64,000 bases of DNA, from sequence record MN850566.1. One strand, 5' to 3'. Numbering within the stretch: position 1 is the stretch's first letter; each line of letters starts with the position of its first letter. Of this stretch, positions 36,464-39,194 are shown piece after piece. Source of the DNA: Escherichia phage garuso. The notes beneath the pieces are model-generated. The model was not told where the DNA came from. It was given only the letters and a program-made list of their open reading frames with translations, and ran no database searches. Both the position numbers and the translations under genes were made by a program.

Positions 36464-37879
36464 ATGAGCGAATTATTTAAACATGCGCACCTTCATGCAG
36501 GTCGAACTGAAAATGGTGCTGTAAACCATACTTCATCAATGTCTGCTCTTGTGGACTTTTACAAAGCTGCTGGTTCAAGCCGTAGCAATGTAGAAATCTT
36601 ACCAGACCTGTTCTACAAAGCTTTGCGTGAGGATGTTGATGTTGCAGTTCGTATTTTACTGCATATGCGAGATGTACGAGAAGGTATGGGTGAGCGTAAA
36701 GCCTTCAGAACTGTTTTGCTTCAAGCAATTGAAGATAAAGTTTTAGAGCCTACACAGGTTCTTCGCATTATGGATAAGATTGCAGAGCTTGGTCGTTTTG
36801 ATGACTTCAAAATCTTCGTAGGTACTCGTTTCGAGACAGATGCCTTCAAACATTTAGAAGCAGCATTACTAGACCCTGCAACAGCAGGTTTGGCGGCTAA
36901 GTGGTTACCACGAGTCAAACCACGTCATAAGCAGTTTGTAAAACGTTTCTGCAAGTTTGCCAACTTGAGTGAGAAAGAGTACCGCACACTGTTGTCTGCA
37001 CTATCTGATACAGTTGAGCAAAAAATCTCTGCTAATGAGTTTGGTAAGATTGACTACAGTAAGATTCCTTCACTTGCTGCTGCACGTTACCAAAAACTGT
37101 TTAACCGTAAAGATGGAGAACGCTACAAAGCTTACATTGAGTCCTTATCAAAGGGTGAGGCTAAGATTAATGCTGGTGCTGTTTACCCGTATGATGTGAT
37201 TAAATCTGTCAAGCATGGTAATGCAGATGTTGCTAATGAGCAGTGGAAAGCACTACCAAACTGGATGGCAGAGGGTGAAAACATTCTATGTATGTCTGAT
37301 GTTTCAAGCTCAATGTCTTGGGTGAATTTTGGCTCCATTACTGCTCTTGATATTGGTGTATCACTTGCATTGTATGTAGCAGAACGCAATACAGGTTGCT
37401 TTAAAAATGAGTTGATGGTTTATTCAACAAACCCTCATTTCATCGAACTGAGTGGTGATTTACGAAACCGTCATCGTCAGGTGATGCGACACGTTGAATA
37501 TGGCTCAACTAACTTACAAGCAGCTTTTGACCGCATTCTTGAAACAGGTAAAAGAAACAACTTGACTCAGAAAGATATGCCAAGTAAGCTTATCATCTTC
37601 TCCGATATGGAGTTCAATCAGGTTGATGGAGCTAACGGTCGTACAAACTTTGAAGCAATTCAGAGTAAGTACAAAAAAGCTGGATATGAGATGCCACAAC
37701 TGGTATTCTGGTACTTAGCAAACCGTAATGGTACTTGCGAAGTATCTGTTAAGGATAACGGCGTAGCAATGGTATCTGGTTTCTCTCCAGCCACTTTAAA
37801 AGCTCTGCTTGGTGGTGAGAAGTTTGACCCAATCAGCGTAATGCTCAAAGCAGTAATGATTGACCGTTATATCTGGTAA
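36464..37879 (+). CDS. Ro60/Rsr-like RNA-binding protein candidate (TROVE-like N-terminal region plus C-terminal vWA domain)
   Basis: 471-aa ORF; C-terminal vWA domain with MIDAS motif DVSSS (…LCMSDVSSSMSWVNFGSITALDIGVSLALYVAERN…) and …KLIIFSDMEFN…; its order of motifs matches Ro60 as I recall it; N-terminal ~270 aa unassigned; lies directly upstream of the tRNA cluster. Confidence 0.55.
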   Translation: MSELFKHAHLHAGRTENGAVNHTSSMSALVDFYKAAGSSRSNVEILPDLFYKALREDVDVAVRILLHMRDVREGMGERKAFRTVLLQAIEDKVLEPTQVLRIMDKIAELGRFDDFKIFVGTRFETDAFKHLEAALLDPATAGLAAKWLPRVKPRHKQFVKRFCKFANLSEKEYRTLLSALSDTVEQKISANEFGKIDYSKIPSLAAARYQKLFNRKDGERYKAYIESLSKGEAKINAGAVYPYDVIKSVKHGNADVANEQWKALPNWMAEGENILCMSDVSSSMSWVNFGSITALDIGVSLALYVAERNTGCFKNELMVYSTNPHFIELSGDLRNRHRQVMRHVEYGSTNLQAAFDRILETGKRNNLTQKDMPSKLIIFSDMEFNQVDGANGRTNFEAIQSKYKKAGYEMPQLVFWYLANRNGTCEVSVKDNGVAMVSGFSPATLKALLGGEKFDPISVMLKAVMIDRYIW

Positions 37880-37897
37880 AAAGTTTTAAAAAGGGTA

Positions 37898-37926
37898 TTG
37901 ACAATGTGTTTAATACCCTTTAATAT
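37898..37926 (+). promoter_or_regulatory. Sigma70-like promoter upstream of the tRNA cluster
   Basis: TTGACA-N17-TAATAT between the Ro60-like gene and the first tRNA. Confidence 0.5.
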
Positions 37927-37988
37927 GTTCTACATAGAAACGAAATGAGAGCTTTTCTAAGATACTGAAAAATATTTTAAAAAAGTTC

Positions 37989-38018
37989 TTGACAACCACT
38001 AAAAAATAATGTTAAAGT
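37989..38018 (+). promoter_or_regulatory. Second candidate promoter upstream of the tRNA cluster
   Basis: TTGACA-N18-TAAAGT about 27 nt upstream of tRNA-Pro. Confidence 0.4.
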
Positions 38019-38044
38019 GGTTACATAGAGTTTGAAAAGTTTAT

Positions 38045-38121
38045 CTCTGTTTAGCTCAGCTTGGTAGAGCGTTCCGTTTGGGGCGGTAAGGCCGGAGGTT
38101 CAAGTCCTCCAACAGAGACCA
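38045..38121 (+). tRNA. tRNA-Pro (anticodon TGG)
   Basis: Cloverleaf folded by eye: acceptor CTCTGTT/AACAGAG, D-arm GCTC…GAGC, loop TTTGGGG, T-arm GGAGG-TTCAAGT-CCTCC, CCA encoded. Coordinates +/-2 nt. Confidence 0.7.
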
Positions 38122-38128
38122 AATTAAT

Positions 38129-38206
38129 GTTCCAGTAGACAAAACGGTAAAGTCACCACTCTTTCAAAGTGGATATCTGAGGGTTCAAATCCCTTCTGGA
38201 ACGCCA
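38129..38206 (+). tRNA. tRNA-Glu (anticodon TTC)
   Basis: Acceptor GTTCCAG/CTGGAAC, anticodon stem CCACT/AGTGG with loop CTTTCAA, T-loop TTCAAAT, CCA encoded. Confidence 0.7.
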
Positions 38207-38213
38207 GTTTTGA

Positions 38214-38285
38214 CAGAAGACCAATTACAGCAAACTTAATCTACTCATCTGAAAGTTAATCGGACAAAGAAGATATTTGGTCTGG
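38214..38285 (+). ncRNA. Candidate structured RNA element a (stem-closed, Y-RNA-like)
   Basis: 5' CAGAAGACCAAT-TACAGCAA … 3' ATTTGGTCTGG; 7-bp closing stem AGACCAA/TTGGTCT around an AT-rich ~45-nt interior; between tRNA-Glu and tRNA-Met. Confidence 0.4.
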
Positions 38286-38296
38286 TCATTAAGAAT

Positions 38297-38373
38297 TGCG
38301 GGTATAGAGAAAGGGCGTCTCACATGTCTCATTAGCATGGTATCGGCAGGTTCGACTCCTGCACCCGCCTCCA
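38297..38373 (+). tRNA. tRNA-Met (anticodon CAT; initiator, elongator or lysidine-Ile2 not distinguishable)
   Basis: Anticodon stem CATGT/GCATG, loop CTCATTA; T-arm GCAGG-TTCGACT-CCTGC; CCA encoded; 1-72 position unpaired in my fold. Confidence 0.6.
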
Positions 38374-38379
38374 AATTTA

Positions 38380-38444
38380 CAGAAGACCGTTTACAGCAAT
38401 ACTTATTAAATTTTTAGCGGAAAAAATTGAAATATACGGTCTGG
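38380..38444 (+). ncRNA. Candidate structured RNA element b
   Basis: 5' CAGAAGACCGTT-TACAGCAA … 3' ACGGTCTGG; closing stem AGACCGT/ACGGTCT, compensatory change relative to copies a and c. Confidence 0.4.
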
Positions 38445-38457
38445 TAATACTAAACAT

Positions 38458-38534
38458 GGTTAGGAAGCACATAAGGTATGTGCGGTCGCCTGTTAAGCGA
38501 ATGGCACAGGGTTCGAATCCCTGACTAACCGCCA
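38458..38534 (+). tRNA. tRNA-Asn (anticodon GTT)
   Basis: D-arm GCAC…GTGC, loop CTGTTAA, T-arm CAGGG-TTCGAAT-CCCTG, CCA encoded. Confidence 0.7.
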
Positions 38535-38603
38535 AATTTAGGAGAGAAGCAATTGCTCACCGATTTGTAAGGTGCAAGTCCTTAGCCTGAATAGAAATTA
38601 AAT

Positions 38604-38691
38604 GTGTCGTTATCCCGTAGATGGTAGCGGTGGGGACTGTAAATCCCTTGTCATTGAGACTCGGTAGGTTCGACTCCTACACGGCACACCA
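38604..38691 (+). tRNA. tRNA-Tyr (anticodon GTA), long variable arm
   Basis: Acceptor GTGTCGT/ACGGCAC, anticodon stem GGGGA/TCCCT with loop CTGTAAA, 15-nt variable arm, T-arm GTAGG-TTCGACT-CCTAC, CCA encoded. Confidence 0.7.
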
Positions 38692-38696
38692 ATAAA

Positions 38697-38774
38697 GGTT
38701 ATGTAGTTTAATTTGGTTAAAATACTCCCCTGTCACGGGAGATGATGAGGGTTCAAATCCCTTCGTAACCGCCA
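38697..38774 (+). tRNA. tRNA-Asp (anticodon GTC)
   Basis: Acceptor GGTTATG/CGTAACC, anticodon stem CTCCC/GGGAG with loop CTGTCAC, T-loop TTCAAAT, CCA encoded. Confidence 0.75.
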
Positions 38775-38835
38775 ATTTTGAGAGGGCTATTTAGCCCCTC
38801 CCTTAAAGAGTTCTTACGAGTATTCTTTAAAGGAG

Positions 38836-38909
38836 CAGAAGACCAAATACAGCAAGAATGTATGAAATTTCAAGCCAATTTAATTTTGAAAATTTAAAAC
38901 TTGGTCTGG
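38836..38909 (+). ncRNA. Candidate structured RNA element c
   Basis: 5' CAGAAGACCAAA-TACAGCAA … 3' CTTGGTCTGG; closing stem AGACCAA/TTGGTCT. Confidence 0.4.
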
Positions 38910-38922
38910 CTCAACAAATTTA

Positions 38923-39054
38923 CAGAAGACCGTTTACAGCAAAACTTAAACAATCTATTTCTCCGGTAAAGAAAAGGCGAAGGTTCGATTCCTTCACTCG
39001 GCAGATGTCGAGTTGGTGTAATGGTAGCACTTAAGATGATAAACAACGGTCTGG
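38923..39054 (+). ncRNA. Candidate Y-RNA-like element d with an embedded permuted tRNA-like module
   Basis: Closing stem AGACCGTT/AACGGTCT (38927-34 with 39045-52) and conserved TACAGCAA; interior carries, in order, T-arm GAAGG-TTCGATT-CCTTC, acceptor-3'-like ACTCGGC, 4-nt turn, acceptor-5'-like GTCGAGT (7/7 complementary incl. one G-U), and D-arm GTGT-AATGGTA-GCAC. Confidence 0.45.
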
Positions 39055-39060
39055 TAATTA

Positions 39061-39194
39061 TCTTTGTAGATAAGTTATTAAGCTTACCTGTGAGTATGCG
39101 ACCACAAAGGGTGAAAGGGTAAATTCTAGATTTAAACCCAACAAGGCACATCGCTACAGACCTTAAGCAAGTCTGGGTAGCTTATCTACAAAGA
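39061..39194 (+). ncRNA. Candidate structured RNA closed by a perfect 14-bp inverted repeat
   Basis: TCTTTGTAGATAAG (39061-74) is the exact reverse complement of CTTATCTACAAAGA (39181-94); the ~106-nt interior contains hairpin CTACAGACC-TTAAGCAA-GTCTGGGTAG. Confidence 0.35.

Follow-up and report, generated by a model that had tools for sequence, protein, structure and literature searches.

In Salmonella, the Ro60 orthologue Rsr is encoded in the RNA-repair operon rsr-yrlBA-rtcBA, and in Deinococcus Rsr-Yrn1-PNPase is known as RYPER. Phage-borne Ro60/Y RNA modules have also been described (PMC4201824; PMC12135203). The known phage YrlA RNAs adjoin TROVE-annotated Ro60 genes, as in mycobacteriophage ET08, and carry the sequence GNCGAA (PMC4201824), while the Ro60 of Thermus phage phiLo is a recognizable TROVE protein whose RNAs Yrl1 and Yrl2 carry CGAA (PMC12135203). 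Chen et al. (2014) described the YrlA architecture as a terminal stem enclosing a T arm, a closed acceptor stem and a D arm; owing to a 7-bp acceptor stem, the M. smegmatis RNA can be processed by RNase P and receive CCA (PMC4201824). A PhageMaP preprint on coliphage Bas63 (JohannRWettstein) noted that gp130 is structurally similar to Ro60, that its deletion cripples plaquing on hosts with the Ppl defense, and, speculatively, that certain annotated tRNAs might be Y RNAs (PMC11482910). Here we analyze a locus at positions 36,464–39,194 of a 64,000-nt stretch (the window) of Escherichia phage garuso (MN850566.1), in which the gene for a 471-residue Ro60-like protein is followed, within a tRNA cluster, by three short RNA elements (E1–E3), one long element (E4) and a hairpin (E5). 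In our assessment the locus probably represents a Ro60 ribonucleoprotein (RNP) of a second lineage, composed of a DUF2828/DUF7788 protein and its cognate Y-like RNAs E1–E4. A Ro60/Rsr-plus-Y-RNA interpretation had been put forward in a first-pass annotation of the sequence, and it is supported by the present data.

That annotation had credited the 471-residue open reading frame (ORF) with a C-terminal von Willebrand factor A (vWA) domain bearing an intact MIDAS (metal ion-dependent adhesion site; DVSSS), preceded by a shortened TROVE module of some 270 residues. The first part is borne out: DVSSS begins at residue 279, and the MIDAS motif is complete, since D279, S281, S283, T349, and D381 are invariant in 36 homologues with identities down to 41%. 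Pfam assigns DUF2828 (E 1e-29) and DUF7788 (E 2e-43), and the protein is matched by PHROG 850, which is labeled "RNA-binding protein." Its AlphaFold2 model (predicted local distance difference test, pLDDT, 88.9; predicted template modeling score, pTM, 0.89) was compared with the PDB using Foldseek, and the top 12 matches were all Ro60, with full-length alignments and E-values from 7e-9 to 1e-6; among them are structures from Xenopus (2i91/1yvp), Thermus phage phiLo (9kop/9l5y) and Deinococcus (2nvo), and the cryo-EM entries 9nfa/9nep/9nf8. The protein is thereby predicted to have the Ro60 fold, i.e., a helical-repeat ring joined to a vWA domain, with the ring occupying approximately residues 1–265 of the model and the vWA domain with its MIDAS following. 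The N-terminal portion is assigned as TROVE-like because all 12 top matches are Ro60 over their full length. The proposed TROVE module thus stands at the level of the fold but not at that of the sequence profile; its sequence has diverged past profile detection. The orthologue in Bas63, bas63_0130, is 98% identical, lies at the same place ahead of tRNA-Pro, and is the gp130 of the preprint.

The DUF2828-type family is very large, with 2,839 matches in one search. Members were located by tblastn in phages of Vibrio, Klebsiella, Aeromonas, Campylobacter, Listeria, Staphylococcus, Enterococcus, Bacillus, and Mycobacterium; those of the mycobacteriophages, which likewise are DUF2828/DUF7788 proteins, already carry the SEA-PHAGES annotation "Ro-like RNA binding protein." The Ro60-like fold is also found in giant viruses (Pithovirus, Marseillevirus, CroV, and mimivirids), and DUF2828 proteins have been reported from plants and mimivirus-like sequences. 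A literature search for DUF2828 (PF11443) found nothing about function.

The locus is 97–98% identical to genomes of Felixounavirus, among them Felix O1, adrianh, and LF82P3, and includes the tRNA cluster typical of this genus, in which ARAGORN recognizes 25 tRNAs and Rfam 24, all on the + strand. Between positions 38045 and 38774 six genuine tRNAs (Pro, Glu, Met, Asn, Tyr, and Asp), unmentioned in the first-pass annotation, alternate with the elements (Table 1). E1 fills the Glu/Met spacer, E2 the Met/Asn spacer, and E3 and E4 that between Asp and Lys; all four lie 330–1180 nt downstream of the Ro60-like gene on the same (+) strand, well inside the 4 kb taken here as the bound for a Y RNA gene. 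The four repeated stem-closed elements claimed earlier are therefore real and distinct from tRNAs, as they are located in the spacers between ARAGORN calls. Their identification with the tRNAs at 38297–38774 was considered and rejected on the same ground, and neither ARAGORN nor the Rfam tRNA model (RF00005) calls any of E1–E5. The common layout of each element is N4-AGA-AGACC(N2-3)-UACAGCAA ... (N2-3)GGUCU-G-N4′. In E1 an outer stem (UGAC/GUCA), an internal loop (AGA/G), and an inner stem (AGACCAA/UUGGUCU) are followed by UACAGCAA at 38226–38233; the corresponding outer and inner stems are UUAC/GUAA and AGACCGU/ACGGUCU in E2 (motif at 38392–38399), and GAGC/GCUC and AGACCAA/UUGGUCU in E3 (motif at 38848–38855). 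The outer 4-bp stem differs between all three copies by compensatory changes. Shared by the elements are a covarying terminal stem, UACAGCAA without variation, and a CUG at the 3′ end; three matches to AGAAGACC..GGTCTGG were found where shuffled sequences give an expectation of zero.

In the Felix-like phages only, a leader ACAGAAGACC precedes the inner stem (38213–38222, 38379–38388, 38835–38844, and 38922–38931). Part of the motif recurs in it (UUACAG...UUACAGCAA), its AGAAG is similar to CGAAG within YrlA GNCGAA(N)G, and it may be a second protein-contact site or a coincidence. A literature search for Felix O1-type small RNAs retrieved no expression data.

Related units accompany DUF2828 genes in many other phages. 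Klebsiella phage FBKp34 (Stephanstirmvirinae; 52% protein identity) has three of them in the 480-nt gap between its DUF2828 gene and the tRNA cluster, with the stems GAAGAU/AUCUUC, AGAAGAA/UUCUUCU, and AGAAGCU/AGCUUCU, each followed by UACAGCAA and ending in CUG. Comparable units are present in Sf14, in KVP40-like vibriophages and in dozens of uncultured IMG/VR phages, and mycobacteriophage Kingsolomon has three in tandem (UGGAC.../...GUCCA-G, with NACAGCAA). Across 67 non-redundant loci (805 kb), 96 copies of TACAGCAA lie on the gene strand versus five on the other, 77 of the 96 no more than 1.5 kb from the gene. Closing stems that are 7 bp or longer and end in C[U/A]G were found at 44% of the motif sites versus 0.9% of random positions. 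When 21 short elements from diverse phages were aligned, 92% of the closing-helix cells were paired and six of the eight pairs varied on both sides, counts that are inflated, and to be read as optimistic, as the 3′ stem partners were initially chosen by complementarity. The covariation score of this helix was 0.80 against 0.18 in shuffles, none of 500 of which reached 0.80, and at most 0.21 with a slid partner. RNAalifold predicted the identical helix on an independent alignment of long elements, and the fixed G-C pair and the CUG tail had played no part in the choice of partners.

A covariance model (R1) built from the 21-element alignment retrieved, over the whole window, only E2, E1, E3, and the 5′ part of E4, all beside the gene. 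On both strands of 63 distant loci (759 kb) it gave 60 matches at E ≤ 1, all 60 on the gene strand and many in loci outside the training set. At E ≤ 0.01 there were 42 matches in 35 loci, 34 of them within 600 nt of the ends of the gene and none on the opposite strand. All 13 close relatives and Bas63 have three short elements and one long one at syntenic positions, as in the window. Eight loci with no tRNA within 6 kb retain elements (L023, L024, L025, L031, L037, L055, L068, and L079), from which it follows that they are linked to the protein gene rather than to tRNA clusters. At L087 the order is gene, short RNA, long RNA, and intrinsic terminator, and the neighbors include an Rnl1-type RNA ligase and a metallophosphoesterase; at L089 they are an Rnl2-type ligase, the peptidyl-tRNA hydrolase PTH2, an ADP-ribosylglycohydrolase, and an NS-type endonuclease. 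Genes for tRNAs and transfer-messenger RNA (tmRNA) are frequent around DUF2828 genes, with phage tmRNA genes a few kilobases or less away in several uncultured phages, namely L054 (1968–2372), L055 (12792–13235), L078 (8760–9252), and L085 (11284–11703). The recurrence of tmRNAs, tRNAs, RNA ligases, and PTH2 near DUF2828 suggests islands for repair of the translation apparatus.

E4 combines the closing module of the short elements, with its UACAGCAA at 38935–38942, with a permuted tRNA-like interior. An anticodon-like arm (approximately 38957–38973) is followed by a T arm (GAAGG-UUCGAUU-CCUUC, 38979–38995), a closed 7-bp acceptor hairpin (ACUCGGC-AGAU-GUCGAGU, 38996–39013), and a D arm (39015–39031); a partial match to the Rfam tRNA model (22 bits) spans the first two. 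Paired ends enclosing T arm, closed acceptor, and D arm characterize E4 and its counterparts in seven other phage loci, and this order of arms is seen in Sf14, L015, L017, FBKp34, Kingsolomon, L023, and L075. Among the Felix-like phages the acceptor hairpin shows compensatory changes (ACUCGGC/GUCGAGU, ACACGU/GCGUGU, and ACCCUUC/GAAGGGU), and several long members encode NCCA after its 3′ strand. RNAalifold returned only the closing stem of the long form because MAFFT had misaligned the variable acceptor loops, and it was replaced by a search of each sequence for T, acceptor, and D modules. The Kingsolomon element is matched by Rfam YrlA at 37.9 bits, under the gathering score of 69; E4 was unmatched by this model in scans of the window at both gathering and permissive E-values. 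The 114-nt "tRNA-Asp" of FBKp34 (L003 7003–7116) is an otherwise normal tRNA-Asp(GUC) whose D and anticodon arms are separated by some 36 inserted nt, comprising a hairpin (AACUUCU/AGAAGUU) followed by UUUACAGCA; the same module is thus present in non-permuted form. This suggests a route by which the permuted long RNAs arose from tRNAs.

The sole Rfam family repeatedly touching the short elements is Dicty_Class_I_RNA (RF01414), with 21.3, 17.8, and 12.8 bits in the window. In five other phages it gave 31.9, 28.8, 26.4, 25.4, and 22.8 bits, each full length and exactly on an R1 element; the gathering threshold of 41.5 bits was not reached, the best phage element being that at 31.9. Class I RNAs, which have been reported as unique to Dictyostelia, possess a short covarying terminal stem, an 11-nt motif, a G-C pair, and a variable interior (Kjellin 2021; PMC7919456). 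The motif, CCUUACAGCAA, stands beside the 5′ stem strand, with U3, C6, C9, A10, and A11 universal, and an invariant 5′ G pairs with the C of a 3′ CUGU (PMC7919456). Every sequence and structure feature that Kjellin et al. give for Class I is present in the phage elements. E2 and E4 read GUUUACAGCAA, in which none of the five universal positions is missing; no member of the phage set deviates from ACAGCAA; the G-C pair is found in all 20 sequences with letters at that place; and the 3′ CUG or CAG is conserved. A second covariance model (R2), built solely from the 23 Dictyostelid sequences of the Kjellin 2021 supplement, was applied to 896 kb of phage loci and gave 32 matches at E < 0.1, none of them off the gene strand (best 32.9 bits, E 6.6e-6). 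Thirty-one coincide with R1 elements and the remaining one lies 14 nt upstream of a DUF2828 gene; the first opposite-strand match appears at E 0.13.

It is conceivable, although we lean somewhat against it, that the phage RNAs and Dictyostelid Class I RNAs belong to a single RNA class that serves DUF2828-type Ro60 paralogues as cognate ligands. If so, the Class I RNAs would be the "Y RNAs" of the second Ro lineage, and DDB_G0281243 or another Dictyostelium protein would be the DUF2828 partner. The RNA recognition motif (RRM) protein CIBP/Rnp1A is the sole proven direct binder of Class I RNA; pull-downs with DdR-21 recovered CIBP/Rnp1A, GuaB, NdkC, and DDB_G0281243, an uncharacterized protein. 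Literature searches found nothing on the function of DDB_G0281243 and no link between Class I RNAs and Ro60 or Y RNAs. In the supplement of Kjellin 2021, the Class I RNAs asu_can_20 and ppa_can_99 contain T-arm-like hairpins, GGUUCGA(A)UCC. Arabidopsis ath_can_1 scored 40 bits with the Class I model of Kjellin et al. and was dismissed by those authors for its absent Dictyostelium promoter element.

In the mechanism that we propose, E1–E3 (approximately 70–80 nt) and E4 (approximately 138 nt) would serve as the cognate Y-like RNAs of the Ro60-like protein. The two strong promoters at 37898–38018 would drive them along with the phage tRNAs, and RNase P and tRNA 3′-end processing would free them from the polycistronic precursor, a mode of release that we infer from the tRNA 3′ end and the following tRNA 5′ end which bound each element. 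The putative recognition module comprises the covarying terminal helix, in which one G-C pair is fixed, an unpaired UACAGCAA that follows the 5′ strand immediately on its 3′ side, and the 3′ CUG; by analogy with Ro60, which reads the 5′ stem strand of Y RNA, the protein may bind these three together. The variable part, which in E4 is a tRNA mimic, might tether or gate a partner handling tRNA-shaped RNA or RNA ends, candidates being PNPase, an RNA ligase or repair enzymes, and a host nuclease. The likely outcome would be protection or repair of the translation apparatus, together with counter-defense during infection.

Several points weigh against this proposal. The profile search against TROVE that the first-pass annotation had suggested as a check gave only DUF2828 and DUF7788, Pfam TROVE (PF05731) being unmatched in the 471-residue protein, and sequence searches of the PDB, with phmmer on the single sequence or with a 36-sequence profile, yielded noise and no Ro60; the other suggested check, comparison of a predicted structure with Ro60, is that which succeeded above. 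Its covariance search for bacterial Y RNAs was also negative, as neither Rfam Y_RNA (RF00019) nor YrlA (RF02553) was matched in the window even at E ≤ 10, and all members have UACAGCAA where the RNAs read by Ro60 carry GNCGAA(N)G or CGAA. At E ≤ 0.01, 28 of the 63 DUF2828 loci had no R1 match, several of these 28 carrying long-type elements only. The 3′ half of E4 and all of E5 are missing from one Felix-like genome (L013), so that E4 and E5 are dispensable in at least one lineage. Furthermore, gp130 by itself, on a plasmid or inside T7, restores plaquing on Ppl hosts (PMC11482910), so that the phage RNAs are unneeded for the anti-Ppl phenotype. To these must be added the optimistic pair counts referred to earlier, and that expression, processing, binding, and the identity of the partner are inferred.

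The sufficiency of gp130 against Ppl would also suit an arrangement in which the elements work on their own as small RNAs of the phage RNA island, for example as tRNA-shaped decoys or sponges aimed at processing enzymes or at host defenses that target tRNA, and the protein acts without them. Their proximity to the DUF2828 gene would then reflect a clustering of RNA genes, and such genes do often lie within tRNA/tmRNA islands, just as E4 does mimic a tRNA. We nevertheless regard this as unlikely: elements adjoin the gene at the eight tRNA-free loci, 34 of the 42 R1 matches at E ≤ 0.01 flank it closely and all 42 keep to its strand, gene and RNAs can share one terminator, and within the window the elements are beside this gene only.

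Less probable still is that the stem-plus-UACAGCAA units are cis-acting signals, be it for processing, insulation, or stability, in the tRNA precursor or as autoregulatory untranslated regions of the DUF2828 mRNA. The elements do occupy tRNA spacers in the window, and in other phages they immediately adjoin the gene on its 3′ or 5′ side; but two promoters and two tRNAs separate gene and elements in the window, several paralogous copies exist, the long members have a complete tRNA-like fold with a covarying acceptor hairpin, and the Dictyostelid RNAs with the same model-defined features are abundant and stable. The narrower possibility of processing signals in tRNA spacers was rejected, since tRNA-free loci retain the elements. 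That the repeats are functionless selfish or recombination-derived sequences (miniature mobile repeats or debris of tRNA shuffling) is very improbable. In its favor, tRNA clusters are recombination-prone, one relative has a T-arm to T-arm deletion, and a nearby site holds an inserted HNH homing endonuclease; against it, the 8-nt motif stays constant while the stems covary across phages with less than 45% protein identity, and copy number and position are conserved genus-wide. Both of these last explanations fit the comparative data poorly.

Table 1. Features of the Ro60-like locus and adjoining tRNA cluster in the window of phage garuso.
Feature	Position	Strand	Basis and remarks
Sigma70-like promoter TTGACA-18-TAAAGT, upstream of Ro60-like gene	36395..36424	+	Consensus scan, 10/12 positions
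Ro60-like protein, 471 aa, Pfam DUF2828+DUF7788, orthologue of Bas63 gp130	36464..37879	+	ATG start; Pfam, AlphaFold2/Foldseek (predicted fold), alignment
Sigma70-like promoter 1 of tRNA/ncRNA operon, TTGACA-17-TAATAT	37898..37926	+	Consensus scan; conserved in Sf14
Sigma70-like promoter 2, TTGACA-18-TG-TAAAGT	37989..38018	+	Consensus scan; conserved in Sf14
tRNA-Glu	38129..38206	+	ARAGORN, Rfam; 3′-end maturation would free the E1 5′ end
E1, short Y-like/Class-I-like RNA	38211..38288	+	R1 50.7 bits; Rfam RF01414 17.8 bits
tRNA-Met	38297..38373	+	ARAGORN, Rfam; RNase P cut at its 5′ end would free the E1 3′ end
E2, short Y-like/Class-I-like RNA	38377..38447	+	R1 58 bits; R2 19 bits; RF01414 21.3 bits
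tRNA-Asn, 3′ boundary of E2	38458..38534	+	ARAGORN, Rfam
tRNA-Asp, final tRNA ahead of the E3-E4-E5 block	38697..38774	+	ARAGORN, Rfam
E3, short Y-like/Class-I-like RNA	38833..38912	+	R1 48.3 bits
E4, long YrlA-like RNA, short-element closing module around permuted tRNA-like domain	38920..39057	+	Per-sequence module search; partial tRNA match
E5, 144-nt hairpin, closing helix ~23 bp, internal mini-hairpin ACAGAC-CUUAAGCAA-GUCUGG	39056..39199	+	Inverted repeat; folding z -5.7
tRNA-Lys, 3′ boundary of the E3-E5 block	39204..39279	+	ARAGORN, Rfam

E5 is a separate structured RNA, which we assign to the Ro60-like system with low confidence; it is matched by neither R1 nor R2. The inverted repeat reported to close this fifth element is real, its length being 22 nt (95% complementary; 39056–39077/39178–39199) rather than the 14 bp given. 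Moogle/Susp-like phages, of sister genera, keep the closing helix through five compensatory changes and the 3′ mini-hairpin through one, and the interior diverges. The deletion in L013 (an IMG/VR genome; approximately 8500–8560) fuses the T arm of E4 to that of tRNA-Lys, also removing the 5′ part of the latter, and looks like the product of recombination between T loops. In Bas63, the spacers are partly covered by two minus-strand "hypothetical protein" coding sequences, bas63_0137 and bas63_0138, placed over E3–E5 (L092 20749–21023), with an 85-residue ORF at 38894–39151 (−) as the counterpart in the window. These small coding sequences are probably spurious calls on RNA genes, in which case whatever fitness values PhageMaP gives for g137/g138 would in fact reflect E4 and E5.

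The ATG of the Ro60-like gene is preceded by a purine-rich ribosome-binding site. The two sigma70-like promoters that had been noticed behind the ORF were confirmed; each has a perfect TTGACA, and both, lying between the stop codon and tRNA-Pro, are also kept in FBKp34. The best promoter match of the region, TTGACA-17-TATAGT, is found further downstream at 39948–39976 (+). The spacer between tRNA-Asn and tRNA-Tyr (38535–38603, +), nearly unchanged in Sf14, contains a T-loop-like GGTGCAAGTCC and may be a tRNA remnant or another small RNA. The HNH homing-endonuclease ORF (39369–39863, +; 164 residues; PHROG 2255) interrupts the cluster between tRNA-Met and tRNA-Ile; adrianh and Bas63 lack this insertion, with a gap of 2–4 nt between the two tRNAs. 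Beyond it are a weak tmRNA-like match (39990–40179, +; 15.4 bits), a tRNA recognized by Rfam alone (40181–40259, +; 31.7 bits) and annotated as tRNA-Arg-TCT in Sf14 and Bas63, and a tRNA-Sec-like match (40408–40482, +; 21.3 bits). The matches within 39940–40500 may be further structured RNAs or decaying tRNAs.

Phage Ro60/Y RNA modules as such, and the likeness of gp130 to Ro60, are thus already on record (PMC4201824; PMC12135203; PMC11482910). Found undescribed are the identity of the RNAs, located as they are in unannotated spacers or beneath spurious small ORFs; the existence of a conserved RNA family of two forms, specific to DUF2828-type Ro paralogues and with a different recognition motif; and its formal equivalence to the Dictyostelid Class I RNAs. 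The elements offer an easily testable set of candidate RNA ligands for DUF2828/DUF7788, a very large family without known function, whose fold is spread over phages of Gram-negative, Gram-positive, and mycobacterial hosts and giant viruses, and one member of which defeats a bacterial defense. In many published genomes such regions are unannotated or misannotated as small ORFs. The Class I match also turns a 20-year-old question on abundant developmental RNAs into an experiment, namely whether they are bound by a DUF2828 protein. For Ro60-type RNPs in general, the locus would imply a second lineage reading a different RNA motif, with maturation in phages through tRNA operons.

Phage T4 species 1 and species 2 are stable RNAs in the T4 tRNA cluster, for which we know of no partner protein; by description only, they resemble the proposed RNAs as small, stable, non-tRNA species co-transcribed and processed with phage tRNAs. 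The Dictyostelid Class I RNAs share with the phage elements the (CC)UUACAGCAA that follows the 5′ strand directly on its 3′ side, an interior that is variable and A/U-rich, and a length of approximately 50–70 nt, but they are eukaryotic and are expressed from dozens of dispersed genes with Dictyostelium upstream sequence element (DUSE) promoters, whereas those described here belong to phages and have sigma70-type promoters. In comparison with the Bas63 preprint, where annotated tRNAs were guessed to be Y RNAs, our candidates are unannotated spacers. From phiLo Ro60/Yrl1/Yrl2 the garuso locus differs in both protein family and RNA motif. With bacterial Ro60 (Rsr) it shares the ring-plus-vWA/MIDAS fold of the modeled protein and the placement of small RNAs, short and long, beside the gene on the same strand; with YrlA, the terminal stem of E4 enclosing a T arm, a closed acceptor stem, and a D arm (PMC4201824); and with rsr-yrlBA-rtcBA, the linkage to RNA-repair genes seen in related DUF2828 loci. 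It departs from them in that the garuso protein has no TROVE sequence match and is shorter (471 residues versus approximately 530), and in that UACAGCAA with the 3′ CUG takes the place of GNCGAA in RNAs embedded in a tRNA operon.

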